Virus record (IMG/VR): IMGVR_UViG_3300042013_000061
Span: 64,001-128,000 of that record
Reading direction: 5' to 3' (one strand)
Length of the DNA stretch: 64,000 bases
Origin: a virus
The position numbers and the translations under genes are program-made. This document shows, piece after piece, positions 10,166 to 40,047 of this stretch; within the stretch, counting starts at the first letter, position 1, and the number at the start of each line of letters is the position of its first letter. Below the pieces are notes generated by a model. That model was not told where the DNA came from, ran no database searches, and saw only the letters and a program-made list of their open reading frames with translations.

Positions 10166-13100
10166 TTATCCTTTGGACAGGCGTTTCTGCGGCTTCGCTA
10201 GTTTGATCGGGTCTTTATCTTTCGCAATCTTTTTCTTCTTGCCCGGAATTGCGATTGGATCGTCCACGCCTTGTTTAATCAGGAATGCACGTTGCTTGAT
10301 TGCCCACGACGGGCCTTCGTCGAATTTGCTGTGCAGTGCGCGCAGCGTATCGTTAACATCCAAATCGTAACCGAGTTCCGAATTCATCCCCTCAATCGCT
10401 TCACGCAACAACAGGTCGAGGCTGTCTTTTTCTTTGATCGGATATTTACCGGTCAGTGCCATGTTCCAACCGCCGCACTGATCCAACGAGAAACCAAAGT
10501 CAAAGTCGATTTCCAACGGGATTTCGAATGTGAAATTGTGACGCTCTTTCGAGATTTTCGCTACGTCGTAAGTCAGACCTTTTTCGATCATGTCCACGGC
10601 CAGCCAGAAGTCTTCAAATGCACAGGAGAATTCAAGGGAGTCGTGTACGCTGTTGGCCTGTACAAAGTCCGGGTAATGTCCGGTCTTTTGGTAGTATTCG
10701 AAACGACGTTTTTCAATGCAACGTGCGCCGGTCATCATGAAGTCGGAACCCATGCCCTGTACCGGTGAGTTTACAGATTGCCGCTCGTTACGCGAAATGA
10801 TGTTGCCCGCGTCTTCGTGCGATTGCGGAGTCAGGAAACCCCACAGGTTACGGCGGCGACCGAGTGGCGATTCAACGTACAGGAATTCACGAGCGTGAGC
10901 TTTGGCTTTATCAAACCAGCCAGCACCAACCGGGAAACGTTTAAAGAATTTCGCAGTCAAATCACGAACCATTTCCACGGTCGCGTCAATCGACTTCGCT
11001 GTACCCTTTTCACCCTGTTGGTAAATCAGTCCGAAAATTACCTGCTTAACGCTGTTCCGTTTTGGCTTGTCGATCTTGTCGATATCCATACGGAAGAAGT
11101 ACGCAGCGTTAATTTTGTGTACGTCACCTTTCAGTTCAATATCTTGCGCCAATTCAATCGTCGGCGTTTTCTTGAACTTCTCACGCAGAACCAGACCTTC
11201 ACGGAATACTGCTGCCACCTCTTTGTCACCAGAGATAAGCGACCAGCCGCGAACTTCGTGTGCCGCGTAGTCCACCTTAATAAATATTCGACCTTTCGGC
11301 GTAATAAACAAACGCTTAATCAGTTTACCCATTGCCGAACGTGACGGGATTGTTTGCAGTGTTGGGTCACGTGCCGAAGTACGGCCTGTCACCACGTCGA
11401 GATAACCGAAGCGCGGACGCATGCAACGGTCGGAACGGAAGTCATCATCTTCGCCCCACTTGAGAATAAAGCTCTTCACATACGAGTTGTAAAGTTTCTC
11501 AATTTTCGACAGTTCCGAGAACAACTTAATCTCGGGAACATCTGCATACTTCTTCTGGAAATCTTTGTCGATCTTGCCTTCGCCTTTCTTGTTTAACAGG
11601 ATAGGTTTCAGGCCGAGGACTTTGAAGAACAGAAGCTGTTTGTGGTCGGACTTGTTGATCTTGAAAATCTTCAGGTTCGACCGGCCAAACATTCCCATGC
11701 TTGGAGCGCCGTTCTGTTTCGCCAGAAGTTTGTTTGCCTTTCTGACGCCTTCGGATTCGTACAGCAGTTTCGTAACGCGGTTTTTCTCTTGAACAATTTT
11801 CGAATCTTTCGACTTGAGTTTGAACAGCCAGTCAATGTCGAGATACGAACCGTTAAATTCAAGGTTGCTCAGCGTGTGAATCTGATCGCTAAGCTGCTCG
11901 GAAACCAGCGACTCATATTTCTTAAAGCCGATTGTCTTACCGAGTTTTAATTGCAGCTTTTGAATGTGCAGCAGCGTGATTACGTCGAGCGCCATGTACG
12001 TTAACACTGGCCCTTCCAAATCTTCGTCCGCAATGAACGCCCGGTTTTCTTTACCGAAGTCGGATTCGTAATATGCACGACAGCCGTACTGCATACAGAT
12101 ATTCAACAGGGAATAATAGTTACGCCCGGTTACTGTCTGGATTGCTTTGTGGTTTTCATCCTTGCCGAATTCCGCAGAGATAACACACCACAGATTCGCT
12201 TTGAAGAACCGCACGCCCAAGTCACGACGCGCACCAATCAGGTCGAACGCTGCGTTGGCATAGAGGTTGTATTTGTTCTTCGATTCCCACTCGAAATAAT
12301 CGCGAAGTTTCTTCTTGATGTATTTGAGTTCTTTCGGGAGCCACGGCGAATCTTTATGCAGGAACGGCAGAATGTATGCCCGTCCGGTTTCCGTTGCGAA
12401 CTGCCAAGTTACCGTGTGGTTTTTACGACGGTTCAGGTTCCGGGTTTCCGTATCAATCGAAACGATTTCCGCTTCAACGATATCCTTGTACATTTTGTCG
12501 AACTTTTTAATCGTATCGACCATGACGATATCGTATTTGAGCTTCGGCACTTTGTACATCAGTTCGCCGTCGTTCAAACAGGTCGTCAAGTTGCGCGCCA
12601 CGTAACCAGCAGCCGCCATCGTTTCGTCATTCTTCTGCAAGCTACGCAGACTCAATGTCGAGACGTGATTAAACTTGTGAACTTTCCCTTTGTATTCCAG
12701 TTTGGTTTTGATCGGAACGCCGTAGAAGTGCTGCCACTGCACACCCTTTTTGCCGGTGTGTTGCGAAATGAATTCGCCGTTCAATGCCTTCGTTGGGTCT
12801 TGTCCAAACGTCACCACAGTATCAGGTTTGTAAACGCTGATAATGTATTCCAAACGCTTCTTGAATTCTGCTGCTGCAATTTCCAAGAAGGCAGGCGCAC
12901 CGCCCATTGTTTTCATGCTGTTATAACTGACGGCCATCCAGTTATAATCATCCAGCTTATTTGGTGCGTGATAATATTCTTCAGCACACCACATCAGATT
13001 GCGCAACAGTTCCCCGGTCGCACCATCAAACAGCTTGTTACGACGCATTGCCTCACCGGGCATTGAATCCAAAACAAACAGGATTTTTCCACGTGCATTC

Positions 13101-13204
13101 TTCGTCACGTGTTTGGGCAATTCGACTTTATCAAATCCCACAACGTCATAAGGCTTTACCGCCTTACTATACTTGTGGGTGAATTCCACATAATCAAACT
13201 TCAT
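10166..13204 (-). CDS. polA: Family A DNA polymerase with N-terminal UDG-like domain and 3'-5' exonuclease
   Basis: ExoI SIDTET, ExoII NAAFD, ExoIII YMALD; TGRTSARDPTLQTIP; motif A VDYAAHEVR; motif B RNSVKQVIFGLIY; motif C SVHDSL. Start placed at ATG 13204 because a promoter motif lies at 13241. Confidence 0.95.
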   Translation of the reverse strand: MKFDYVEFTHKYSKAVKPYDVVGFDKVELPKHVTKNARGKILFVLDSMPGEAMRRNKLFDGATGELLRNLMWCAEEYYHAPNKLDDYNWMAVSYNSMKTMGGAPAFLEIAAAEFKKRLEYIISVYKPDTVVTFGQDPTKALNGEFISQHTGKKGVQWQHFYGVPIKTKLEYKGKVHKFNHVSTLSLRSLQKNDETMAAAGYVARNLTTCLNDGELMYKVPKLKYDIVMVDTIKKFDKMYKDIVEAEIVSIDTETRNLNRRKNHTVTWQFATETGRAYILPFLHKDSPWLPKELKYIKKKLRDYFEWESKNKYNLYANAAFDLIGARRDLGVRFFKANLWCVISAEFGKDENHKAIQTVTGRNYYSLLNICMQYGCRAYYESDFGKENRAFIADEDLEGPVLTYMALDVITLLHIQKLQLKLGKTIGFKKYESLVSEQLSDQIHTLSNLEFNGSYLDIDWLFKLKSKDSKIVQEKNRVTKLLYESEGVRKANKLLAKQNGAPSMGMFGRSNLKIFKINKSDHKQLLFFKVLGLKPILLNKKGEGKIDKDFQKKYADVPEIKLFSELSKIEKLYNSYVKSFILKWGEDDDFRSDRCMRPRFGYLDVVTGRTSARDPTLQTIPSRSAMGKLIKRLFITPKGRIFIKVDYAAHEVRGWSLISGDKEVAAVFREGLVLREKFKKTPTIELAQDIELKGDVHKINAAYFFRMDIDKIDKPKRNSVKQVIFGLIYQQGEKGTAKSIDATVEMVRDLTAKFFKRFPVGAGWFDKAKAHAREFLYVESPLGRRRNLWGFLTPQSHEDAGNIISRNERQSVNSPVQGMGSDFMMTGARCIEKRRFEYYQKTGHYPDFVQANSVHDSLEFSCAFEDFWLAVDMIEKGLTYDVAKISKERHNFTFEIPLEIDFDFGFSLDQCGGWNMALTGKYPIKEKDSLDLLLREAIEGMNSELGYDLDVNDTLRALHSKFDEGPSWAIKQRAFLIKQGVDDPIAIPGKKKKIAKDKDPIKLAKPQKRLSKG

Positions 13205-13240
13205 AGGGTAGTGTCCGGTATAGAAAACCTTCCCGTGGTA

Positions 13241-13247
13241 TTTACAG
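13241..13247 (-). promoter_or_regulatory. Putative phage promoter motif CTGTAAA(T)
   Basis: aaaCTGTAAATa about 37 nt upstream of the polymerase ATG and directly downstream of a terminator. Confidence 0.65.
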
Positions 13248-13261
13248 TTTTCCATAGAACG

Positions 13262-28056: not shown

Positions 28057-29427
28057 TTAACCGAAAGCTGGTTTTTTGTTACCGGACTTCTTCGGAACAG
28101 CGCCACCTTTCGGTTTAGCGGCTGCTTTCGGAGCGGCCTTTGGTGCGGCTTTAGCGGCGGCTTTCGGCGCTGCTTTTGCTGCTTTTTTCGGAGCGGCTTT
28201 TGCTGGTGCAGCTTCAGCTTTTGGCTTGGCTGGACGACCACGTTTTTTCGGAGCGACTGCCGGAGCGGCTGCTTCTTTTACTTTGGCTGGGCGACCACGC
28301 TTTTTAGCTGGTGCGGCGGCTGGCGCTGCTTCAGCTTTTGGCTTGGCCGGACGACCGCGTTTCTTTGCCGGTGCTGCTGGTGCTGCTTCGGCTTTTGGTT
28401 TTGCAGGACGACCGCGTTTTTTCGCTGGAGCGGCTGGAGCAGCAGCTTCAGTTTTTACTTTCGCAGGACGACCGCGTTTTTTCGGTGCAGCGGCTGGAGC
28501 GGCGGCAACTTCAGTTTTCACTTTAGCTGGACGGCCACGCTTTTTGGCTGGAGCGGCTGGAGCAGCAGCTTCAGTTTTTGGCTTGGCAGGACGACCGCGT
28601 TTTTTCGCTACTGGAGCCGGTGCAGCATCAGCTTTTGGCTTGGCTGGACGGCCACGCTTTTTGGCTGGTGCAGCTTCAGCAGCCGGAGCGGCAGCAGGTG
28701 CTTTACGCGCTTTTTTCACAGCACCGCCGGTTTTGCCGAAGTGCTTAGTGGAAATAGCTGCGGTTTCTTTTTGTGCAGCAACTTTGCGAGCAGCAACCTT
28801 TTTAGGGTCGATGGTTTGCAGACGCTTGCCTTTCTTGGAGATTGGCTTGGCGCTGAAGTTACCGATGAAATCCTTCAGGCGGAAAACGCCGCGCTTTGCA
28901 GACTGCGCTTTGATTTTGCCGATGGTTTTCTGGTGAGTTTTCACCGCTTTCATACGCTCGCCAGCGAGTTGTTTACGCTCGGAAGCGTAACGCTGTTTCT
29001 CAGCGGCGCGCATTTTCATACGAACGGCAGGAGCGACTTTTGCAGTGCGGATTTTTTGCAGTGCTTTTTTGTGAGCACCGGAAACGGCTTGAGCCTTCGA
29101 TTTCAGTTGACCACGGATGGACTTCTGAGCGGTGACGGCTTGACGTTTCTGTTCCGAAGCGTGCTTACCAGCGTGGCGAAGTTTGCGGTTGGCTTTGTAG
29201 GCACGAACGGCTTTTTTCGCTTCAGCTTCGGTAGCACCGTGACGCATGGCACGCAGAAAAACCGAGTTTTCCAGATGCGCCAGTTTTTCCTGATGCGTCA
29301 TGGTTTTGTAACGGTTTTTTGCAACCTTGTTCAGCTTCGATTTGTTTTTGTTGCGGTATTGTTTAGCCTTTTTGGCAGCAGCGCGTGCCTCGGGGCTTTT
29401 GTCCTTACGGACGACTTTCGTGACCAT
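28057..29427 (-). CDS. Histone H1/AlgP-like basic DNA-binding protein with 8 AT-hook (KKRGRPAK) repeats
   Basis: Very K/A/R/P-rich; eight KKRGRPAK units separated by AAPAAP linkers; KAAPKAA tail; monocistronic with its own TAATTTA motif and terminator. Confidence 0.88.
   Translation of the reverse strand: MVTKVVRKDKSPEARAAAKKAKQYRNKNKSKLNKVAKNRYKTMTHQEKLAHLENSVFLRAMRHGATEAEAKKAVRAYKANRKLRHAGKHASEQKRQAVTAQKSIRGQLKSKAQAVSGAHKKALQKIRTAKVAPAVRMKMRAAEKQRYASERKQLAGERMKAVKTHQKTIGKIKAQSAKRGVFRLKDFIGNFSAKPISKKGKRLQTIDPKKVAARKVAAQKETAAISTKHFGKTGGAVKKARKAPAAAPAAEAAPAKKRGRPAKPKADAAPAPVAKKRGRPAKPKTEAAAPAAPAKKRGRPAKVKTEVAAAPAAAPKKRGRPAKVKTEAAAPAAPAKKRGRPAKPKAEAAPAAPAKKRGRPAKPKAEAAPAAAPAKKRGRPAKVKEAAAPAVAPKKRGRPAKPKAEAAPAKAAPKKAAKAAPKAAAKAAPKAAPKAAAKPKGGAVPKKSGNKKPAFG
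28210..28680 (-). repeat. Imperfect ~57-66-bp coding tandem repeat (AT-hook array)
   Basis: Repeated ggacgaccgcgtttttt / ggacggccacgcttttt units on the + strand. Confidence 0.85.
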
Positions 29428-29522: not shown

Positions 29523-30572
29523 TTAACTGGCCGAAATCCCCAGCCGGGCACAAGCCTTTTTAACTTCTTTTCGACCGGCTTTAATCAACTCTTTATCAAA
29601 GCCTTCTGCCACCATGAACTCTTTTAAACCAAACATTGGATCAATATCAATGTTTTCCACTTTAATTGAATCATCTTCAGAAACATTCGATTTTTTCGCA
29701 CCAGCCTTATGAATGCCCCCGGTAATGTTCGGGTATTGAATCATTAGGTCTGCTGGAATAGGAACATCTTCAGCCACGTGCAGCTTATAACGAACGTTAT
29801 CCGAGTACGTCAGCTTCTTGTAATCATTCAGATCATTAATCTCTACGTTCTGCAACGTAAAGTTTGGTTTGTTTTCAACGAACTTGTGTTGGAACGCAAC
29901 GCGGTTTCCTTCCATGCTGGCTTTAAAATGAATAAAGCCTTTTGGCAATGCTTCGCCAAAGTTTTTCTGGAATGGATTACCGCAATAAACGGCCCGCTTT
30001 GTTTTCATGAATTGGTATTGGTGAATATGCCCGGAAATAGTGAAATCGTTTTTGTGGGTTTCCAATTCATGTTTGGTTTTTAACGAACGACCGTTATCAC
30101 CAATAGCGCCGCTGTATTCAACGTGCGCAAAGTTCAATGCACCCTGTTTAGTGGACAGGGTTTTCAAGCATGGGTACGGCAGGAAATTCACCGGTACGTT
30201 TTCGATTACAACGCGTTCCGGTTTCAGGACGATTTTCAGACGCTTAAACGCTTTCGACGTTGCCAGCTTGTGCATGAAATTCATCGACGTATTTTCGATA
30301 TCACCGAAATCATGGTTGCCCATGATGTAATACGTGTAAAGGTTTTCATCGTGTCGCAGAAACAAATCGTACAGCTTGCCGTATGTATCCCAATCGAGGT
30401 CTGGTGTATCAGACAAATCGCCCGGAATAAATACGTGTTTAATACCGTTGCTATACGCGTACTGGTAAATCTTTTCCATTTCCGCCAAGATGCGATCATT
30501 TGCATCGGGGAAATGCTTGTTCAATCCGTCAAGGTGAACGTCAGAAAATGCAATGCCTTCAAGATCAGCCAC
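29523..30572 (-). CDS. sbcD: SbcD/Mre11 (gp47-like) metallophosphoesterase nuclease
   Basis: SDVHL, PGDLSD, MGNHD, FAH, SGHIH, YCGNPFQKNFGE...KGF. Confidence 0.92.
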   Translation of the reverse strand: MADLEGIAFSDVHLDGLNKHFPDANDRILAEMEKIYQYAYSNGIKHVFIPGDLSDTPDLDWDTYGKLYDLFLRHDENLYTYYIMGNHDFGDIENTSMNFMHKLATSKAFKRLKIVLKPERVVIENVPVNFLPYPCLKTLSTKQGALNFAHVEYSGAIGDNGRSLKTKHELETHKNDFTISGHIHQYQFMKTKRAVYCGNPFQKNFGEALPKGFIHFKASMEGNRVAFQHKFVENKPNFTLQNVEINDLNDYKKLTYSDNVRYKLHVAEDVPIPADLMIQYPNITGGIHKAGAKKSNVSEDDSIKVENIDIDPMFGLKEFMVAEGFDKELIKAGRKEVKKACARLGISAS

Positions 30573-31008
30573 GTTTTACTTCCACTGTGAATTGAATGTA
30601 TTTCAGGGGGCGCGAAGGTTGGAACGAATACGGCATAACCAACATACCGATCAGACCCCGACCACGCTTTTTCGCCGTGCGTTTGTTACGCAGGAATAAG
30701 TGCGTAATCCGTTCACCGTCAGCCGTGTTCCCGCCGACCAGAACGCCACGGCGATTTCCCCGTTTTTCATCATTTACAGTAAACGATTCGACGATACCTT
30801 CACCCGGCCCGCCGACAGTGAAGTCATTAATGCCACGCCGATCTATTAAATCGTCAAAGAATTTCTTGATAATTGGTTTTGCGTCTGCGGTTTCCATACC
30901 AATTGTGTGTGACAGTTGATCGCTGATATGCTGCACCATTCTGCGCACGTTGATATCGTCGATAGAGCTACGCGCTGGTATGTCGTCGAGGCCAGTGTGG
31001 TCAGTCAT
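30565..31008 (-). CDS. Stand-alone tail-sheath C-terminal-domain-like protein
   Basis: SSIDDINVRRMVQHI...FFDDLIDRRGINDFTV...FQPSRPLKYIQFTV matches sheath C-terminal consensus (INVRRL...FL..L...RGI.DF.V...P.R..EFI). Confidence 0.65.
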   Translation of the reverse strand: MTDHTGLDDIPARSSIDDINVRRMVQHISDQLSHTIGMETADAKPIIKKFFDDLIDRRGINDFTVGGPGEGIVESFTVNDEKRGNRRGVLVGGNTADGERITHLFLRNKRTAKKRGRGLIGMLVMPYSFQPSRPLKYIQFTVEVKRG

Positions 31009-31282
31009 TTTTATATTCTCGTGTGCGCAGGCAGGAACCGAAATACAGGATGTTTTTATCGAACAGGTTATTCACGAATGCCAGCCGGTCTTCGTCAAGA
31101 TCGAATCGCGCTGCAATTTCTGAGAGCTTATCGTTTGTCTTGATGTGGTAGATTCCGAAGTTTTCGACTAAGTGGCGTTCGTACTTGATTTCCGAGGCTG
31201 CGCGTTCCGGGTCACTCCACTGGATACGCTTCTCGAAAATTGCACGATCTTTTTCGTGTACATCGAATTCGTCGGCTGGCAT
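31001..31282 (-). CDS. LysM domain protein
   Basis: YHIKTNDKLSEIAARFDLDEDRLAFVNNL..KNILYFGSCL. Confidence 0.75.
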   Translation of the reverse strand: MPADEFDVHEKDRAIFEKRIQWSDPERAASEIKYERHLVENFGIYHIKTNDKLSEIAARFDLDEDRLAFVNNLFDKNILYFGSCLRTREYKND

Positions 31283-31287
31283 TTAAA

Positions 31288-31626
31288 TCACCGTAGTTTG
31301 ATTACTTGGCCCGGAAAGATCAGATGCGGATTTTCCAGATTGTTCAACTGTGCGAGAGTGCGCCACGAATGGCCGGTGCCTTCACCAATGTGCGAAAGCG
31401 TATCGCCTTCTTGCACAATGTACATGCCGTACTCTTTCGACACTTGATAACGCAGTTTTTTCTTCAGCGCTTTCAGTTCGTCGCCGGTGATTTCGTGGAT
31501 TTCCAAACCATGCACGGTCTGGCGTGCGACAGAATCTTTAATCGGAATGTTAGACGCGCTCACTGTGAGGTTGCCGTCAGTCTGAACATGCACATTGCCA
31601 GCGGAAATATCTACTTTGGTATTCAT
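31288..31626 (-). CDS. LysM domain protein
   Basis: YIVQEGDTLSHIG...GHSWRTLAQLNNLENPHLIFPGQVIKL (canonical LysM). Confidence 0.9.
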   Translation of the reverse strand: MNTKVDISAGNVHVQTDGNLTVSASNIPIKDSVARQTVHGLEIHEITGDELKALKKKLRYQVSKEYGMYIVQEGDTLSHIGEGTGHSWRTLAQLNNLENPHLIFPGQVIKLR

Positions 31627-31988
31627 GAGATTGGCGGCGCCTCGTCGATTTTCAGTTCTTCGGGAGTTTTAAGATTGCGTGCTGCAAACATGGATGCGCG
31701 CAGACGATTCAAACCTTCGACCGTCAATTGATCTTGCGCGTAATTCTCTTCCGCGTGGAACGGATGATCGACGTGGCCGATGGTGCCAACATTCGGAAAT
31801 TTCTTACCGAATTTTTGCAGCTTGGCTTCTTCGTCGAGGTTACGCACATGCTGATTGAACTGGCGCAGCATCTGATCGTAAGCGGCGCGCTGGTAAACAT
31901 ACGCATTTTGAAACGCAAAGTTTCCGATGTTTGCTTGCTGAATGCAGTAAGCCAGAAACTTTACGGGAGGGCGAATTGGAATTGCCAT
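31623..31988 (-). CDS. Small protein carrying the EF-Tu N-terminal motif [10 protein letters not shown]
   Basis: [19 protein letters not shown]; no GKT and no further G-domain motifs; AAGGA SD. Confidence 0.7.
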   Translation of the reverse strand: [121 protein letters not shown]

Positions 31989-32000
31989 GACGGTTCCTTG

Positions 32001-32483
32001 TTAAAACGAATGTGTGAAATTCAGTGTGTAACGTTTGCCGTGAACGCGGGCGAGGCGCTGACTGCGGAATTCGATTTCGACGTTCGCAATCCCTGTGTGA
32101 TAAATCAGGGTAGCGCCGCGCCTGTGGGAGCGAACCGAAAAACGTTTACGTTCGGGTTCTGGGTTATTCACCCGGTCGTACCATTCTTTCATCCACTTAT
32201 GCGCAGCGTTCGACTGTTCGAAATAGCTGTGCGACGAAACCGTTTTCGATGGTTTGCGTTCGTGGAAAGGCAAACCGTTTTCATTCGCCGTCAAGGTGAT
32301 ATGAGTTGCAGGCGATGGAAATGCGCCGGGGTGGCGGGCGCTGACTTCGAACGCAGGCATACCGCCAATTTCAATCGTCCACTGATTTTTCGTTTCTTTC
32401 GGGAAGACGTGAGCGACATGCAACGGCCCGCTATGGTTCGCTAAAACGTCCATCAAATTCGCTGGTGAATTTTGCTCTACCAT
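32001..32483 (-). CDS. Hypothetical protein
   Basis: 160-aa ORF in operon. Confidence 0.6.
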   Translation of the reverse strand: MVEQNSPANLMDVLANHSGPLHVAHVFPKETKNQWTIEIGGMPAFEVSARHPGAFPSPATHITLTANENGLPFHERKPSKTVSSHSYFEQSNAAHKWMKEWYDRVNNPEPERKRFSVRSHRRGATLIYHTGIANVEIEFRSQRLARVHGKRYTLNFTHSF

Positions 32484-32956
32484 CCCCGTCTCCCGATTCC
32501 GTAGCGTTTCATATCCACGCGGGCTTCACGCGCAGAGCGATATTCATACCAGTACGTCGAAACTTCTTTGGCGTCTGGAGCGGGGTTGCGTTCCCAAACA
32601 TAAATCATAACTTTGCCGCGCTTATGCACGAGCGAATAAATGTGTTTTGTTTGGTATTTGTAATTCGGCACGAAAACGTCGGTGATGATTGTAACGTCTT
32701 GTATGTACCCGATACTCCCGGTCAGCGCCAGTTCACCGTCAACAGGTACAGGTTCAACAGTCACACAGCCATCGGTTTCGTTGCATACTTCGCATTTACG
32801 CGCAGGCAAACCCCACGGATAAGATTTCGGCATTGTGTAAAAGCCATCACCGCGTTTCATGCGTGGCAATTCACGAGGCTTGTTCGCCAGTTCCGCCCAC
32901 TTCGCCAGAAGTTCGGGCGAGGGCATAAATGGGTCAGCAATATTCCAGCCGTTCAT
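32477..32956 (-). CDS. Hypothetical protein with CxxC
   Basis: ATG 32956 (ATGA overlap, GAGG SD). Confidence 0.6.
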   Translation of the reverse strand: MNGWNIADPFMPSPELLAKWAELANKPRELPRMKRGDGFYTMPKSYPWGLPARKCEVCNETDGCVTVEPVPVDGELALTGSIGYIQDVTIITDVFVPNYKYQTKHIYSLVHKRGKVMIYVWERNPAPDAKEVSTYWYEYRSAREARVDMKRYGIGRRGW

Positions 32957-33285
32957 ACCGATTCCTCTACGCGGGGTTTCCACATTTTGGCAAACTTCAA
33001 AACGTTCGGAACGTTATTACAGTCTACCGGCATCACAACCAGACAGGACGACTCGCCGTCACAGATTGTTTTCTCGTGGCCTTCGTGACAATCGAGAGTT
33101 TCACGAATTTTATCAAACTCACGCCAGTTAACACGCAGCACAACTTTACGAAAAGAATTGTGCAGCCAATCAATGTACGTGCCTTTGTCTTGGAACTTCA
33201 AATGCGCCGAAAGCATTGAATGTGCAACCAACGTCGGCACCATGTAATCGGGAGCGTCGTCGCGTACAGCAATATACAATTTCAT
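32953..33285 (-). CDS. Peptidyl-tRNA hydrolase type 2 (Pth2)-like protein
   Basis: MKLYIAVRDD......LVAH......W....FRKVVLRV matches Pth2 'K..IVVR.DL....GK..AQ..HA ... W...GQ.K.VL.V'. Confidence 0.7.
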   Translation of the reverse strand: MKLYIAVRDDAPDYMVPTLVAHSMLSAHLKFQDKGTYIDWLHNSFRKVVLRVNWREFDKIRETLDCHEGHEKTICDGESSCLVVMPVDCNNVPNVLKFAKMWKPRVEESV

Positions 33286-33596
33286 GTTTTCGCCCTTCGC
33301 TTTTTGATCCAGACCTTCGCGGTACGCAGGCTACGGAATTTCAGAACGCTACCCTTTGGCAGCAACAGGAAAACAACCGCGCCCCACTTCGACGAATAAA
33401 CAGACGCGTAATCCCACGCAAGTTTTTTCCATTCGTCTTGTGGAACCTGCATCGCATCAATGCGAGCGACAGCACGGCGGTTGCGACGGTATTCAGTTTC
33501 GAGTTTTGCTTGTGGCAGACGTGTTTGGTACAACTTCAAAAGTGTCATGCCATCATCGCGAACCATGTTGCGCAAATCCCAATTCTGAGTCGTCAT
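33282..33596 (-). CDS. Hypothetical protein (paralog motif KFRSLRTAKVW)
   Basis: ATG 33596 overlaps the upstream stop. Confidence 0.6.
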   Translation of the reverse strand: MTTQNWDLRNMVRDDGMTLLKLYQTRLPQAKLETEYRRNRRAVARIDAMQVPQDEWKKLAWDYASVYSSKWGAVVFLLLPKGSVLKFRSLRTAKVWIKKRRAKT

Positions 33597-33991
33597 TTTA
33601 TAGATGCCCTGAATTCTTTCACCCACACTTTCGCGGTACGGCGCGAACGGAACTTTGTAACTTTCTTATGTGGATAAATCGTGTGAACATTCACGCCGCG
33701 ACGGTGCGAACTAACGATGGCTACGCGCTTGAGCGAATCCAACATTTGCTTTTGTTTCGCACGTGCGTATTCTTTGAAGCGTTCGGCGGCTGCGGTGAAA
33801 TCCGGGCTTGCATATGTGTCGCTTACGCTGCCATTTAAAAAATCTTCAGATATCCCCAGCATCGCCAATTTCTGGCGCATCAATTCGTCCGACATTATCG
33901 GGCTGTCCAACTTCCACTGTTCCGGTTCCGGTGGCTTCGTCAGAAAGAGGTCGTTTATGTCCACTTGCGTGTTCCTTTTCATGGCGAGCAA
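33593..33991 (-). CDS. Hypothetical protein (paralog motif KFRSRRTAKVW)
   Basis: Start uncertain (33982 or 33895). Confidence 0.6.
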   Translation of the reverse strand: MLAMKRNTQVDINDLFLTKPPEPEQWKLDSPIMSDELMRQKLAMLGISEDFLNGSVSDTYASPDFTAAAERFKEYARAKQKQMLDSLKRVAIVSSHRRGVNVHTIYPHKKVTKFRSRRTAKVWVKEFRASIK

Positions 33992-34217
33992 TTGCCTCTG
34001 TAATAAAATTCAGAGCGTAGCAATTTGCGCGCACGTACCAATAACCTTCGTAACCGTCGGAGAATACTACCAGAGCCGGGTACGATTTCGGATAGCCTTT
34101 GATATCTGGTTTACGTTCTTCGTTATTCCAGAATTCTTTAGCCGCTTGTTTGAAGCCAGCCTGTGTCCGCACAATGTACAGACACGGCGTAAGTTTTTCG
34201 CGATTGTCAGTAATCAT
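33846..34217 (-). CDS. Hypothetical protein
   Basis: ATGA overlap with the upstream gene; GYPKSYP motif. Confidence 0.6.
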   Translation of the reverse strand: MITDNREKLTPCLYIVRTQAGFKQAAKEFWNNEERKPDIKGYPKSYPALVVFSDGYEGYWYVRANCYALNFITEAIARHEKEHASGHKRPLSDEATGTGTVEVGQPDNVGRIDAPEIGDAGDI

Positions 34218-34969
34218 TTTTTCGCCTTCGGTTTTTTCATACCCTTGACGACCACGCCTTTGTTGATCGCACGAATGTAGCGCAATTCGTAAGCACTGAT
34301 TTTCAGTTGCTTTGCGATATCGTCTTCCTCACCTTCCATTTGCAACGCTTCACGATACAGGATCGCGGTCGGGCTGCTTAGCAAGTCATTCATTCGTTTT
34401 ACTTGCTTGTCAGTGAGTGGCACGGTTTGGCGTAGCTTCTCCACTCGTTTACAGTATTGACTGAAACTCTCTTTCGAAGCCATCCATTTGCACACCAGTT
34501 CCTTGATTGGCTTCTGGTGTGTCTCGCTCGGCGTGAGATAAACAAACGTCATAAACTGCATCAAGAATGTAGCTTGTTGCTTCGCGTGATCTTTCGCTTT
34601 TTTCACAACGTCGAAAGGCAACCGCACGATTGGCACGTCCGGGCATTTGTCGAGACGAATGCAAGGCGTCAACGCAAACCCGTCAATGTGAAAGAATTCT
34701 TCGGCGCGGTAATCGGCAGGCGTGAAACTGAATTGCGAAAGCGCAATCGGATCGTCGCACACGTAGGACTGTACTTTGCGTAGTTCCAGTCCTTCGCGGT
34801 TCCGCTGGAAAGAATGCACACTCATAAAAATGAAATGTGTGCGCTTGGTTTTGCGGTCGATGATTTCGTTATCACCAACGATATAAACGTCGGAACGTTC
34901 AATACCTTCGCCGCGTAGCTTGAGCAATACTTCGTCAGGTGCCTTATGGGCGAACGCAAAAACTTTCAT
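34214..34969 (-). CDS. Hypothetical protein with possible C-terminal HTH and basic tail
   Basis: 251 aa; EDDIAKQLKISAYELRYI; ends KGMKKPKAKK. Confidence 0.6.
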   Translation of the reverse strand: MKVFAFAHKAPDEVLLKLRGEGIERSDVYIVGDNEIIDRKTKRTHFIFMSVHSFQRNREGLELRKVQSYVCDDPIALSQFSFTPADYRAEEFFHIDGFALTPCIRLDKCPDVPIVRLPFDVVKKAKDHAKQQATFLMQFMTFVYLTPSETHQKPIKELVCKWMASKESFSQYCKRVEKLRQTVPLTDKQVKRMNDLLSSPTAILYREALQMEGEEDDIAKQLKISAYELRYIRAINKGVVVKGMKKPKAKK

Positions 34970-35125
34970 TTACTTATCCTTTGGACATTTGGCTTTGATT
35001 TCAGCCAGTTGTTCATTGCCGCGCAAACGCGAGACGGCGAGACGGGCTTCGATGTTGAAACGATTCTGCGCTCGGAAATAAGTGAAGTTGTTCAGGAATT
35101 TCGTATGACGCAATTCGACAGACAT
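34970..35125 (-). CDS. Small hypothetical protein
   Basis: MSVELRHTKF... 51 aa, fills the operon exactly. Confidence 0.5.
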   Translation of the reverse strand: MSVELRHTKFLNNFTYFRAQNRFNIEARLAVSRLRGNEQLAEIKAKCPKDK

Positions 35126-35127
35126 TT

Positions 35128-35295
35128 TTATTTCCCTGCAAGTGCGCCCGTGAAACAAGCGCCCTGCTCTTTGGCCTGCTGCATAATTGCAGAATGGGCC
35201 GCTCGGTTATCATCGGCGTAAGCCTGCACCCTTTCGAGTGCGGCTTCTACGTCAAACGTTTTCCTTTTAAGCTGTTTGTTTTTCAGTCGGGCCAT
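35128..35295 (-). CDS. Small hypothetical protein (not in ORF track)
   Basis: Manual translation MARLKNKQLKRKTFDVEAALERVQAYADDNRAAHSAIMQQAKEQGACFTGALAGK; fills the gap between neighbours. Confidence 0.55.
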   Translation of the reverse strand: MARLKNKQLKRKTFDVEAALERVQAYADDNRAAHSAIMQQAKEQGACFTGALAGK

Positions 35296-35495
35296 TGGCT
35301 AACTTTCTCGTGATGAACACGGGTTTCGTTAATCGAATTGGTCATGTCGTGAATGCTCGACAGCACTGCTTCGTCGCCCATCAATGCGCGGGGAATCAAA
35401 ACGTCAGAAGTGATTTCCACACCATCTACAAGAAGCAGCAGAGCATTAATCCGCCAGCCTTCTTTTTCTTCGTTGCATTTCCATTGAGTTTTCAT
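35283..35495 (-). CDS. Small hypothetical protein
   Basis: 70 aa, ATGA overlap with the sbcC stop. Confidence 0.55.
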   Translation of the reverse strand: MKTQWKCNEEKEGWRINALLLLVDGVEITSDVLIPRALMGDEAVLSSIHDMTNSINETRVHHEKVSQWPD

Positions 35496-37795
35496 TGCTC
35501 AAGCTTCACTTTCGAGACGCCTTTATGTTTCTCGACAGTCACGTAACTGCAATCGCTATGCACGTGCTTACCCTTTTGTGTAATCAGGAAAACATGCGGC
35601 ACCAGCGTGCGCAGGAACGGAATATAACGATCAGCAAAAAGCGTGATTGTTGTTTCGTCCATGTGTGCATCAGGTTCGTCGAGGATCGCGATGTTAACCC
35701 GTCGATCAGCCTTCGCCATAATCACGCAAGCGAGGAAGTGCAGCAGACGGAAACTATCGGATTCTGCGCCGGACAATTCACGGACGTCAGATACGTTACC
35801 ATTCCCCCGGTCAACGATGATGTGAACGCCATCGTCTTTTGCCACTACGCTAAACTTGAACGGCTCAGCGAAAATCAAGTTGGCAAATCGGTTGTAGTGC
35901 TGTTCCAACTGGTAAACGATTTGGTGCATCGCATGCAGTTTCAAGCCCTTGTTGCTGTAGGCTTTCGACAGTGCTTTGTACAACTGCAATTTCTTCGTCA
36001 GCGGTTCCAGCTTTTCAATCTCGCCGCTGATTTGATCGCGTTGTTTCGACAGCAGTTTGAATTCAGCGCGACGGCTACCGTGCTTAACGGAAATCTCATA
36101 CGCTTTTTCGTATTTCTTTTCTACCTTGCGCAACTTGGCGGCAGTCTCTTCAAGCTCTGCGGTCAAGCCTTTGTCTTCAGGCACTTCGTCGAATTCTGCA
36201 AGCCGCTCTTTCAGTGCTTTGATTTCGTCGAGAATTTCAGCCTGTGTTTCGATCTGTTCCAGCGTGAGCGTGGCAGAACCTTTCGGCGCTTTCGGCTTCT
36301 TCAGTTCGGACATTTGCTCGGTGATTTCATCGAAGCGTGCAGCATTTTCCAACTTGTCGTTAAGCTCTTCCAGTTCTTCGCTGGATTTCTTCAGCTTCTT
36401 TTTCAACGCGTAGTAATCACGCTCGTTGAATTTCAGTTTGTCGATGATCGCTTTGTTTGTCGTCCGCGTTTCACGGATTTCATAAGCGTGGATCATCGAC
36501 AGTAGCAAACCTTTACGCTTCTTCGCAGCCTTCAGACTTTTCTCAAGGTCTTTCAGGTTGATTTTCTGCATACAGGTCGGGCAGTTGCCGTCGTCGTGTT
36601 CGTGCAGCAAATCAGAAAGTTTCAGCGTGGTTTTCACCATGCTTAACTCTTCCTTCAGTTCTTCCATCGCGTCGAGTTTCTGTTTGTTGCAACGCGACAG
36701 GAAGCTACGCAATTCTGGCTCGGTATGATCGTCGAGGTTTTCCAGTTCACGCACGGCGGCATCGTATTCGTCACGAACCTTTGTCTGTCGTTTGTACTCG
36801 ACTTCCATCGTTCCGATTTCAGCACGCAATTCGTTAACGCGTTTTTTCAGCTTTTTGCCGCCGCCTGTATCGCCCAGTTCTTCCAGCTTCTTTGTCAGGC
36901 GCTTGGCTGTCTTCTGGTACTCGGCCAACTCTTCCTGATAATGCTCGGAAGCCTCAAGGAATTTGTATTGCTCTTTGAGTTCGGCCTTCGTGTATTTCGC
37001 TTTCTTTTGCAGCTTTGTCAGTTTCGATTTCGCAGACGAATAAAACTCCACTTGCTTCATGAGCGAGCGGAGTTCCTGAGTGCGAGCCTGCAACCGGGTA
37101 ACTTTCTTGGCCTGAGATTTCACAACCTCGGTGGCTTCGTCGAGTTCCTTTTGCCGGTGTCGATTCCAACCGTTTTTATTCAACGCGTCATTCGTGTTAA
37201 GCAGGTTTTTGCTATGCACGTCGGCTTTGTTCTGTGCGATCTTTACATCATCGACCAGCTTGTCGAAATACCGGCGCAGAACATCAAATTGATCCAGTCG
37301 CCACACGTCAGTGATATACGACATACGCGTTCGCGCAGTGCCGTACATAAAGTCGAGTTTTTTCTGCGACTGGAGGTGAACGTAGGAATACCATTCATCA
37401 GAGGTCAGCGGAATAATCTTTTCGATCCACTCACGCTGTGCCGCTTGGCCGCGCACTTCCAAATCCGTACCGTCGCGAAAGATTTTGTAGCCGCTTCCGC
37501 TTTGGCGAATCGTCCAGTCGTGGCCGAGGTTCTTCACGTCGATTTCAATGTGAGAACCTTTCGAGTGAATCCGATTTTTCTTGCGAGTATCCGCCAACGG
37601 CATTTGTTCGAAACGCACGTTGGGCAGCATGCCAAACAGAACAGATTTACCGGCGCCGTTGTTGGTCTTCTTCGAAATCAGCGAGTCACGGTTGTGGCCG
37701 CTTACAACGGTGAAGCCACAGTTATTCGTGAAATCAAATGCACCTTCTTTGTACGATACAACGCCATTGAAACGACTGCCGGTAATATCAATCAT
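35492..37795 (-). CDS. sbcC: SbcC/Rad50 (gp46-like) ATPase
   Basis: Walker A NGAGKS, Q-loop, long coiled coil, Zn hook CPTC, signature LSGAE, Walker B ILDEPDAHMD. Confidence 0.93.
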   Translation of the reverse strand: MIDITGSRFNGVVSYKEGAFDFTNNCGFTVVSGHNRDSLISKKTNNGAGKSVLFGMLPNVRFEQMPLADTRKKNRIHSKGSHIEIDVKNLGHDWTIRQSGSGYKIFRDGTDLEVRGQAAQREWIEKIIPLTSDEWYSYVHLQSQKKLDFMYGTARTRMSYITDVWRLDQFDVLRRYFDKLVDDVKIAQNKADVHSKNLLNTNDALNKNGWNRHRQKELDEATEVVKSQAKKVTRLQARTQELRSLMKQVEFYSSAKSKLTKLQKKAKYTKAELKEQYKFLEASEHYQEELAEYQKTAKRLTKKLEELGDTGGGKKLKKRVNELRAEIGTMEVEYKRQTKVRDEYDAAVRELENLDDHTEPELRSFLSRCNKQKLDAMEELKEELSMVKTTLKLSDLLHEHDDGNCPTCMQKINLKDLEKSLKAAKKRKGLLLSMIHAYEIRETRTTNKAIIDKLKFNERDYYALKKKLKKSSEELEELNDKLENAARFDEITEQMSELKKPKAPKGSATLTLEQIETQAEILDEIKALKERLAEFDEVPEDKGLTAELEETAAKLRKVEKKYEKAYEISVKHGSRRAEFKLLSKQRDQISGEIEKLEPLTKKLQLYKALSKAYSNKGLKLHAMHQIVYQLEQHYNRFANLIFAEPFKFSVVAKDDGVHIIVDRGNGNVSDVRELSGAESDSFRLLHFLACVIMAKADRRVNIAILDEPDAHMDETTITLFADRYIPFLRTLVPHVFLITQKGKHVHSDCSYVTVEKHKGVSKVKLEQ

Positions 37796-40047
37796 AATGC
37801 TTCCAGATACTTTCTGATATCGCGCAAGTTTGTCGCCGCACGAGTTTGATGTTCAAAGGTCAGGCGCTGTTCCAACATTTCCAGAGTCAGCAGCCATTCC
37901 AGACTTGGTGGGTTAGCGTTTTCTGCATTTACAGAATTTGCATCTTTGCGTTCGTTGTAGAATTCACGTGGTGGCGGTTCGCCAATGGAAACCCCCGGAG
38001 ATTTCAACGAATGACACAGACGTTCCATGTGCGGTTCAATTGCTGCCACACATTCGTCAAGTTCCGCTTCGTCTTCGCGTTGCTGGCGAGCGATACGCTG
38101 CTCTTCAGTTTCACCGGTTGGGCAAGGGCCGGGGCCAACAGGGCCGCGTACACCGATTGATTTTCCTTGAATGTCGAATACTTCGTGTGAGTCTTCAACT
38201 TCGTGAACAGTTTTAAACGCAGAAACCAAACTTTCTTTTTCGGTATCAGACCACGCACGCGGAGGCTGGCCGGTTGGTGCTTGCAGGTTTACGTTAACTG
38301 CAAAATCGTCGATGATTTTAACTGGCACACCGTCTGCAATTTCTTCGCCTTCTTTTACAGGCACTTCGATTACAGCAGGACTCTTCATCATTTCAGCCGC
38401 GATTTGTGCAGCAACCCATTCTGCATCTGGCAGATAGGAAAGTTGCACTTGACCGCCAGCGCTAACGCTTACGATTTTCTTGCCGTAATGTGGACTGGTT
38501 TTGTCTTCGATATGCGTAGGAGATTGGCTCACTTCCCGCGCTTCGACATTGAAACCGCCTTTGAAGTTTTTCAGCAGACCTTTACGCTCTACGATTTCTT
38601 CAACAGGTGCTGGGGTTTCAGCAACAGGTGCTGGGGTTTCAGCAACAGGCTCAGGTTCAACCGCGACCGTTACGGGCTTGCGCTTCGGAAACAGGAAGCC
38701 GGTCACTTGCACAAACTCTGCAATCCCGGCGAGCAAAAGACTCTCTTTTACTTCGTCAGTTTTTGCAGGATCGAGTTCGAAGCGTTTCATGAATACTTGC
38801 AGACGCACGCCACCTTCGATGTAATCGGTAACGTCTGCAATTTCCAGTGTGGAGAAATCTTTGTAGACTTTTTTCACAGGGTTTTTCCCGACCGGTTTAA
38901 CTTGAATTTCGTTCGGTTTGAGATTCTTGTCTTCTACGACTTTGATGCCTGCAACTTGGAGCGTTCGTTCGTCATTGATATTGACCCCGGTTTCTTCATT
39001 TATAAAACCGGGCGGGCCAGCGAAGGTTTGCAGGGTGTCGTAATTAAGTCCATGTGTTTTGTGCATTTTGTAAGCAGGCTTCGCAGTTTCTGCAACGAAC
39101 TTGTCAACAGCCTGTTTGATGATTGCACGCACGTTGCCCATCGAATAGCCGCGATGGCTGAAATAATCCAGAACCATATCGTGCGGCAAACGCGTGGTTT
39201 CGATAATCGCGTGCAAATCGTAAGGAGGTGGAACTACGCGGCAATATTCCTCAAGGATCGCGCCTACTGCATCGGCATTCATGATGCGACGAACGCTGTG
39301 CAAATTGTTGGCGTCGAAATCCAGCGTCGGGTCAACGTACTCACCGTCTTGCTTGACGTTGAAATACCCGTCCATCGACAGGTCGCCAAACACTTCGAGG
39401 AAATAGTTTTTCTCGACGATAAACGCTCGGGAAATTTCTGCGTGACATGTTTCAGCGGTGAACGCGTCTTTCATGTTTTGAATCACAGCGCGAATTTCTG
39501 TTTCAGAAGTCAGCATGCGCCGGGTTTCAACTGGCGGAACGGTATGCTTCACTTCCGAATCAGGCGTATACATCGCGTAAGTGGTGCCGACTTTAATCGC
39601 TTTTTTCTGGTCGATCAGATTGCGCAGAATCCACGTCAGTGCGCTACCTTTCTTGCCGAAGAATGCGCCGAGTTCCAACGCCGTTTTCGGGCGTCCGTTG
39701 GCGTCGATCAGCAATTGCAGAACGGATTCTTCAGACGGTTTATTCATGTCTGGTTTCAACGTCATGTCCTTCGGCGGAATGTCGTTATTCAGCGTATGCA
39801 CAATCGGATTCACTGGGGCAAATTCTTTCGAGATTGCCGCGTTCTCTTCCCGTGCATGATCCTCGTTAATGGTGAACTTATTGTCAGCATCGACGACCAC
39901 GAGATTCTGTTGCTTCAAAGTATTCGAAGCGTGAATCAGTTGGATATATTTCTCACCCATTTCGCTGGTGTAGTCCGACAGCGTTTTACCGGGGTGGCAC
40001 TGAATGTGAAGCAGCAGGGCTGCCTCTAATGTGGACAAGTTTTCCAT
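37792..40047 (-). CDS. Large protein with tandem winged-helix-like domains
   Basis: N-terminal MarR-like wHTH (LSTLEAALL...GKTLSDY...L..QNLV) and a second wHTH (EESVLQLL...PKTALELG...L..QKKAIK); acidic Pro-rich C-terminal half. Confidence 0.6.
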   Translation of the reverse strand: MENLSTLEAALLLHIQCHPGKTLSDYTSEMGEKYIQLIHASNTLKQQNLVVVDADNKFTINEDHAREENAAISKEFAPVNPIVHTLNNDIPPKDMTLKPDMNKPSEESVLQLLIDANGRPKTALELGAFFGKKGSALTWILRNLIDQKKAIKVGTTYAMYTPDSEVKHTVPPVETRRMLTSETEIRAVIQNMKDAFTAETCHAEISRAFIVEKNYFLEVFGDLSMDGYFNVKQDGEYVDPTLDFDANNLHSVRRIMNADAVGAILEEYCRVVPPPYDLHAIIETTRLPHDMVLDYFSHRGYSMGNVRAIIKQAVDKFVAETAKPAYKMHKTHGLNYDTLQTFAGPPGFINEETGVNINDERTLQVAGIKVVEDKNLKPNEIQVKPVGKNPVKKVYKDFSTLEIADVTDYIEGGVRLQVFMKRFELDPAKTDEVKESLLLAGIAEFVQVTGFLFPKRKPVTVAVEPEPVAETPAPVAETPAPVEEIVERKGLLKNFKGGFNVEAREVSQSPTHIEDKTSPHYGKKIVSVSAGGQVQLSYLPDAEWVAAQIAAEMMKSPAVIEVPVKEGEEIADGVPVKIIDDFAVNVNLQAPTGQPPRAWSDTEKESLVSAFKTVHEVEDSHEVFDIQGKSIGVRGPVGPGPCPTGETEEQRIARQQREDEAELDECVAAIEPHMERLCHSLKSPGVSIGEPPPREFYNERKDANSVNAENANPPSLEWLLTLEMLEQRLTFEHQTRAATNLRDIRKYLEAL
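38601..38649. repeat. Perfect 21-bp tandem repeat (2.3 copies) encoding PVAETPA
   Basis: caacaggtgctggggtttcag x2 + caacagg. Confidence 0.9.

Follow-up and report, generated by a model that had tools for sequence, protein, structure and literature searches.

A short phage protein with an embedded EF-Tu peptide: its conservation, its recurrence in other phages and a tentative mimicry model

Elongation factor Tu (EF-Tu) is the most abundant bacterial protein. Links to it have been known for Lit, whose cleavage site in EF-Tu is G59-I60, for Doc-type toxins and for the plant receptor EFR. Passages from four background sources, cited here collectively (PMC13581612; 10.1101/2024.10.24.620036; PMC13459536; PMC5593925), give EF-Tu as 6-10% of the proteome and describe it as a target also of Lit, as a substrate of the type IV Thoeris caspase, which cleaves after R45 and R59, and as being bound by Avs7 via domains II and III. 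Here, a small phage protein carrying a peptide of EF-Tu is described. Its gene lies in the window, by which is meant the whole stretch of 64,000 nucleotides that was analysed, namely positions 64001-128000 of a 139.6-kb IMG/VR virus record (IMGVR_UViG_3300042013_000061; CheckV completeness 47%). An earlier note on this DNA had pointed to an exact EF-Tu 10-mer in a 121-amino-acid (aa) protein that is not a GTPase, and proposed either a linear-motif mimic that decoys an EF-Tu-binding factor or a captured tuf fragment kept under selection. The gene, its signals and its parts are as follows.

31623..31988, minus strand: gene of the motif-bearing protein, 121 aa, stop codon included (open reading frame list, codon comparison and homologues)
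31994..31999, minus strand: Shine-Dalgarno-like AAGGAA, 5 nucleotides (nt) ahead of the ATG; the minus strand reads TAA CAAGGAACCGTC ATG
31800..31964, minus strand: N-terminal helical part, residues 9-63, with predicted helices 9-20 and 29-63 (AlphaFold2; predicted local distance difference test, pLDDT, ~64-82 in the second model)
31764..31793, minus strand: EF-Tu-identical 10-mer, codons 66-75, matching EF-Tu strand beta-1 together with the leading half of the G1/P-loop
31722..31763, minus strand: variable linker behind the motif, residues 76-89 (0/13 invariant columns in 77-89; pLDDT <50 for residues 68-86)
31677..31721, minus strand: C-terminal predicted helix, residues 90-104, a conserved block (AlphaFold2 and alignment)
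31623..31626, minus strand: ATGA overlap between the stop of the motif gene and the start of a LysM gene (open reading frame coordinates)

The identity with EF-Tu was confirmed by BLASTP against EF-Tu from locus L042, in which the motif aligned at 10/10 positions. Extending the alignment to the upstream KF...P gave 13/20 identities and a gap of two residues. This upstream resemblance, to which the earlier note had also drawn attention, did not hold up: KL and KN are found in the homologues P0002 and P0005, and the score was reached by 748/2000 shuffles. Behind the motif, the sequence departs from the Walker A pattern GxxxxGK[ST], reading GHVDHPFH with PFH in the GK[ST] place, and the homologues continue as DHPFH, DHPHH or DHPQ. 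Pfam gave 0 families at E<=10, and a full G domain of ~200 residues with G2-G5 was not recognised; for domains II and III there is no room, given 121 aa and predicted all-helical flanks. Because the GK[ST] needed for GTP binding is replaced, the protein, judged from its sequence, cannot be a GTPase. It does not belong to the EF-Tu family. The description of an exact EF-Tu 10-mer in a 121-aa non-GTPase was thus borne out. In a sequence search of PDB with phmmer, EF-Tu was matched as N-terminal fragments over a motif region of 14-21 residues (E 0.63-2). The top PDB match was to UBR5 (E 0.012); the alignment is local, short and rich in His and Pro, and was taken as chance. No second copy of the motif was found in the 139.6-kb record. 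Two AlphaFold2 runs, with 4 and 8 sequences, agree on helices at residues 9-20, 29-63 and 90-104, and both model the motif as a low-confidence loop (mean pLDDT 56.8 and 62.1). The models suggest a modular protein, in which a helical N-terminal part would be followed by the conserved peptide between linkers, probably flexible, and by a short C-terminal helix.

The protein belongs to a small family of seven full-length members of 116-121 aa with 72-95% identity (the window protein, P0001, P0007-9, P0002 and P0005). An exhaustive HMMER search found only P0001 and P0003, and P0005 was contributed by a profile search; contigs of four sequencing runs place relatives in other metagenomes, and none of the runs listed is recorded as RNA. 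As a whole, the 121-aa protein matched no Pfam or PHROG family, had no megablast match in 50,697 phage records and no usable match in the ESM Atlas. At the DNA level, one relative was found, a 300-kb IMG/VR contig with 85.5% nucleotide identity (L002/L003); a search of metagenome_contigs gave no further one, and none was found for P0003. Conservation of the motif in homologues had been set beforehand as the test, and all seven full-length members keep it as PNVGT[IV]GH[VI]DHP, with V/I swaps only. In the segment P65-P76, 10/12 columns are invariant among the seven proteins, the variable ones being I70V and V73I, and only 12/110 twelve-column windows match the conservation of this block. Directly behind it, where no column of 77-89 is invariant, P0005 has a 5-residue deletion. 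The window gene and its L003 counterpart differ in 31 codons synonymously and in 12 non-synonymously, and the single difference within the motif, ACC/ACT, is synonymous; these are codon counts for the gene against one DNA relative. The gene is real, because of the 31 versus 12 codon changes, the ribosome-binding site, the ATGA overlap and the conserved gene order, and it is under purifying selection. On the peptide itself, selection acts at the level of the protein. A distant homologue, P0003 (67 aa, 40% identity), aligns to residues 5-67 of the query and stops where the motif would start. It comes from a 10.6-kb contig and may be a truncation; it would otherwise represent a motif-free version of the scaffold, namely the N-terminal helical part alone.

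The same peptide recurs on other phage proteins. By a degenerate DNA pattern, the exact 10-mer was located at 49 loci in IMG/VR, of which 19 continue as EF-Tu and eight are EF-Tu-sized genes (387-560 aa, with GKTT). The other 22 loci are complete short open reading frames (ORFs) of 35-207 aa, departing from EF-Tu immediately behind the motif. These fall, by our own sorting, into about 11 unrelated groups:

Group A: 6 loci, 72-115 aa
Group B: 3 loci, two with a C-terminal half matching DUF1364/YbcO-type phage genes
Group C: 4 loci, an Erwinia jumbo-phage gene, ChrisDB gp215
Group D: 2 loci
Group E: 1 locus, the 121-aa window family
Singletons: 6

In groups A and B the entire N-terminus of EF-Tu is reproduced, Met1 included, and is clearly of tuf origin. 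In group C, ChrisDB gp215 carries the annotation 'putative elongation factor Tu', and relatives of it are present in 48 phage records. Inside group A and inside group C the codons of the motif differ by synonymous changes, and therefore the constraint is on the peptide, not on the DNA. Further carriers were found among phage isolates by tblastn with the first 45 residues of EF-Tu, with matches that stop at residue 23-24. They are Aaphi23 ORF27, phage S1249, Vibrio phages henriette 12B8 (VPDG_00052) and 150E35-1, Burkholderia phage FLC9, Pseudomonas phages PaBG (gp294) and HRDY3, and Aeromonas phage D6, and these near-copies sit on otherwise unrelated proteins. In HRDY3, the motif ORF is not syntenic with the window gene, and the similarity between the two is limited to the motif. 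In many carriers the C-terminus is a tail rich in Arg/Lys and strongly basic (FLC9, L057; PaBG, L056; henriette, L064; 150E35-1, L063; and L023), with a Q-Y-K-[RH]..W-like ending. The carriers of 150E35-1 and PaBG also hold a switch-I-like piece, ERGITI/ARGMT (RGIT/RGMT), and the switch-I region is, in the background passages cited above, the part of EF-Tu cut by defence proteases. A search for the motif in phage proteins without a G domain, which the earlier note had suggested, was thus productive both in IMG/VR and among isolates. As far as can be read from the sequences, the 121-aa protein belongs to a recurrent and unnamed set of EF-Tu-peptide phage proteins. The recurrence of the peptide is not a chance match.

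The distribution of variants gives some idea of where the set occurs. For the NIGT form of the peptide, only 3 of 31 loci are short divergent ORFs, versus 22/49 for NVGT. NIGT is present in the tuf genes of Enterococcus, Staphylococcus and Listeria that were examined, and NVGT is the form that we take to be typical of gamma- and beta-proteobacteria. The phenomenon looks concentrated in phages of hosts with the NVGT form. Three Gram-positive 'phage' matches (Enterococcus, Staphylococcus and Listeria; UNVERIFIED_ORG) turned out to be full-length host tuf and were rejected as mimics. The eight EF-Tu-sized genes on viral contigs (L005, L007, L014, L020, L029, L034, L041 and L051), several of these contigs being 250-436 kb long, may be phage-encoded EF-Tu or host carry-over.

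The reading favoured here, tentatively and at somewhat less than even confidence, treats the peptide as a linear mimic of the EF-Tu beta-1/G1 segment, displayed by a helical scaffold and diverting a factor. The recurrence on unrelated short phage ORFs supports a selected linear motif, and the peptide probably has a function. In its role as mimic it would compete for a factor, of the host or of the phage, by which this segment is recognised, and would tie that factor up or divert it. Since the segment is buried in folded EF-Tu, the contact would most plausibly be one made with unfolded or nascent EF-Tu, or with the open nucleotide pocket. The helical parts may supply solubility, oligomerisation or a second contact. 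A complex prediction of the 121-aa protein with the Swiss-Prot entry EFTU_PSEAE gave a score of 0.00 and a mark of 0.32, and counts neither way. The earlier proposal of a linear-motif mimic that decoys an EF-Tu-binding factor is thus supported in part, namely as to the selected and recurrent motif.

A wider version of the mimicry reading can be formulated, in which a portable EF-Tu beta-1/G1 module is shared among twelve or more small early proteins, unrelated to one another, and targets a cellular factor that reads this EF-Tu segment. This is possible, with more doubt than confidence. With the same reserve, its carriers would be phages of mainly gamma- and beta-proteobacteria, and the 121-aa protein would be one scaffold among fragment-type genes such as the mini-sheath and the LysM mini-proteins. 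Its target could, again doubtfully, be a factor that guards EF-Tu or modifies it, such as an immune sensor or an enzyme, or else a folding step of nascent EF-Tu.

Several observations speak against mimicry. First, exact EF-Tu identity is not required: P0002 has NVGTIGHIDH and P0005 a V/I-variant 10-mer. Secondly, the P0005-type variant was found at 5/5 IMG/VR loci (L096-L100) on non-EF-Tu proteins of 93-267 aa, and also in PaBG, whereas none of the EF-Tu-sized genes in that scan had it. It looks phage-specific, as if the phage motif follows a consensus of its own. Similarly, an [FYH]P prefix stands directly ahead of NVGT in the 121-aa family, group D, PaBG and L097, and EF-Tu lacks it. The Salmonella phage SPN3US homologue of the ChrisDB gene keeps KHINVGTIG and has lost HVDH. 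No binding partner turned up for the 121-aa protein, and because the beta-1 segment is buried in the native fold, it is difficult to imagine what could bind it in folded EF-Tu. Among the 129 neighbouring ORFs scanned at the motif loci, no family of enzymes is common to different groups. Finally, tblastn of the 121-aa protein against the 50,697 phage records, which include the Pseudomonas phages Lu11 and HRDY3, gave no homologue; it is dispensable among relatives. The motif gene is an accessory gene, because Lu11 and HRDY3 are without a detectable homologue.

The shared prefix is equally compatible with mimicry and with a module carried by phages. The main alternative, itself possible though doubtful, is the latter: the motif would be a structural or chemical module carried by phages, its likeness to EF-Tu being historical, through an old tuf capture, or of independent origin. 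It could, at a similarly low level of belief, form a core or oligomerisation beta-strand with a His/Asp turn binding metal or phosphate (H72-x-D74-H75-x-x-H78), spread by shuffling. Besides the prefix and the phage-specific consensus with its V/I swaps, an additional His at +3 in both the 121-aa family and group D would suit such a turn; however, H78 is not conserved and is deleted in P0005. The motif is modelled, with low confidence, as a loop and not as a core strand. The flanks were also compared with EF-Tu. The score of the upstream flank was reached by 707-748/2000 shuffles, that of the downstream flank by 597/2000, and that of the tail against the remainder of EF-Tu by 320/500. This absence of flank homology agrees with the structural module. 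It also bears on the earlier capture proposal: since neither flank resembles EF-Tu above shuffles, capture of a tuf fragment is not demonstrable for the 121-aa family. A fusion by deletion from G1 to G3 at the shared HVD was considered as well. Residues 72-89 (31773-31722) were aligned with EF-Tu G3/switch II HVDCPGHADYVKNMIT, the region of HVDCPGHADY, with 8/18 identical residues and a pairwise BLASTP E value of 0.038, but the match was not above shuffles and was rejected. Against the structural module, in turn, stand groups A and B, tuf-derived from Met1, and the consideration that an intrinsic strand or turn is unlikely to remain 10/10 identical to EF-Tu across unrelated scaffolds.

It is unlikely that the peptide acts directly on EF-Tu or other translational GTPases, with the beta-1 copy pairing with the G domain or a nascent strand and so modulating host translation. 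The near-identity is to a strand exposed only before folding, and PDB entries 5i4r and 2hcj contain the N-terminus of EF-Tu as a chain of its own, 45 and 37 residues long; both points would suit such pairing. Yet the V/I variants weaken any mechanism that depends on identity, the phage itself needs EF-Tu for translation, and the EF-Tu pool is large, with the share of the proteome given in the background passages.

A chance 10-mer, or trivial convergence, is very improbable. With the amino-acid composition of the genome, the probability of the 10-mer is 1.4e-13 per position, and the expected chance count is 0.03 in a representative library of 2.36e11 residues. The scan covered very many windows and motifs, so that lone 10-mer coincidences can arise, but this one is conserved in 7/7 members amid variable linkers and stands beside 22 short-ORF loci in about 11 groups, with near-copies in many isolates. 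Assembly chimeras with host tuf, which would revive this reading, are argued against by the isolate genomes.

The weakest alternative places the function in the nucleotides, which would serve as the attP core of a phage integrating into tuf, be a scar left by recombination, or form an RNA signal taken over from the 5' region of tuf. It finds some colour in the tuf start copied with Met1 by groups A and B and in the 84 nt around the motif (31755-31838), which have 2 mismatches to L003 versus a mean of 11.5 and are the only 84-nt stretch with <=2 mismatches between ~30600 and 33280. It is nevertheless barely credible, as synonymous sites vary within groups, the conservation is unexceptional (9.6% of 84-nt windows equal it in a 10-kb comparison), the loci of groups A and B belong to the nin region, and integrases are near absent (a Phage_integrase match in 1/129 neighbouring ORFs and none in the scanned jumbo-phage parts). 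An attP core in tuf was rejected on the lack of an adjacent-integrase pattern and on the synonymous variation.

The neighbourhood survey covered 129 of 207 neighbouring ORFs at the 22 motif loci; ORFs of <95 aa were dropped, and 13 window ORFs had already been scanned or were excluded. The loci of groups A and B sit between P and Q, in the nin region of lambdoid phages; among their neighbours, Pfam matches were to Dam (4 ORFs) and to NinB, NinG, P and Q (3 ORFs apiece). For group C, the survey showed only Macro. In ChrisDB (L054, 3453-5676) and SPN3US (L053, 2442-4865), the motif gene is directly behind a GNAT acetyltransferase, annotated in ChrisDB as ribosomal-protein-alanine acetyltransferase, and three genes ahead of a macro-domain protein; this conserved neighbourhood is confined to group C. 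No integrase was found among the window proteins scanned.

The window, with a GC content of 48.2%, contains a replication module with a family-A DNA polymerase, an SNF2-type protein (2008 aa), a ResIII helicase and a topoisomerase IV A subunit. In comparisons of the polymerase, identity was 76% with Pseudomonas phage HRDY3 (313.7 kb), 75% with Lu11 (280.5 kb) and 54% with PaBG. The polymerase being closest to HRDY3 and Lu11, the virus is classed by this comparison as a Lu11-type jumbo phage, and its host is probably Pseudomonas or a relative. Landmarks around the motif gene are given below.

10166-13255: family-A DNA polymerase
29523-30572: SbcD-like nuclease
31288-31626: LysM mini-protein gene, downstream of the motif gene (Pfam LysM, E 7e-12)

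Behind the SbcD-like gene comes a block of tightly coupled small minus-strand ORFs (30565-35500), the motif gene among them, and the gene order around the motif gene is identical in L003. The block contains a 147-aa protein with a weak tail-sheath PHROG match (E 0.0021), two LysM mini-proteins, and a PTH2-like protein of 110 aa (phrog_5822; Pfam E 0.0011, below the cutoff). The products of ORFs 33282-33626 and 33593-33991 share a similar basic C-terminal tail, KFRS(L/R)RTAKVW. The large ORFs 35492-37795 and 37792-40047 matched no Pfam family. On the other side, at 28057-29427 on the minus strand, a 456-aa protein has about nine tandem AT-hook-like repeats of the KKRGRPAKPK(A/T)E type in its Ala/Pro/Lys-rich C-terminal half; the L003 counterpart has 478 aa and a different number of repeats.

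That one EF-Tu segment is under selection in so many unrelated proteins of phages implies that the segment takes part in an interaction, one undescribed in the literature searched. There, no paper was found that describes phage proteins with an EF-Tu peptide, the search covering the motif string and phage or EF-Tu mimicry, and no published link was found between defence systems and EF-Tu residues 13-22. To the set, the window adds that a mid-protein motif on a helical scaffold is possible, that only V/I swaps are tolerated, and that the scaffold may also occur without the motif. If true, a portable module of this kind would be a new axis of phage-host conflict at a translation factor. Several carriers are cultivable (Erwinia ChrisDB, Pseudomonas PaBG, Vibrio henriette and Aggregatibacter Aaphi23), which makes the model directly testable.

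In comparison with EF-Tu itself (tuf, PF00009), the 121-aa protein has in identical form the 10-mer that makes up residues ~13-22 of the mature E. coli protein. Unlike EF-Tu, it is without GK[ST], the G2-G5 motifs and domains II/III, and it carries the motif in the middle of the protein, between predicted helices, and not at the N-terminus. With the unnamed set of EF-Tu-peptide phage proteins it has in common the short length, the consensus N[VI]GT[IV]GH[VI]D[HW], a disrupted or absent GK[ST], an early or accessory location and selection at the peptide level, whereas no homology is detectable outside the motif. Many members of the set combine an N-terminal peptide with a basic tail, and the 121-aa protein differs from them by its mid-protein peptide, its acidic end and the lack of a switch-I-like piece. 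In phage defence EF-Tu is an established node, and the described systems Lit, type IV Thoeris and Avs7 touch, as far as the background passages go, parts of it other than residues 13-22. In its setting, the gene resembles those of phage mimics and decoys in defence conflicts: like them, the 121-aa gene is small and accessory, and it lies within a block of small ORFs of the host-takeover type.

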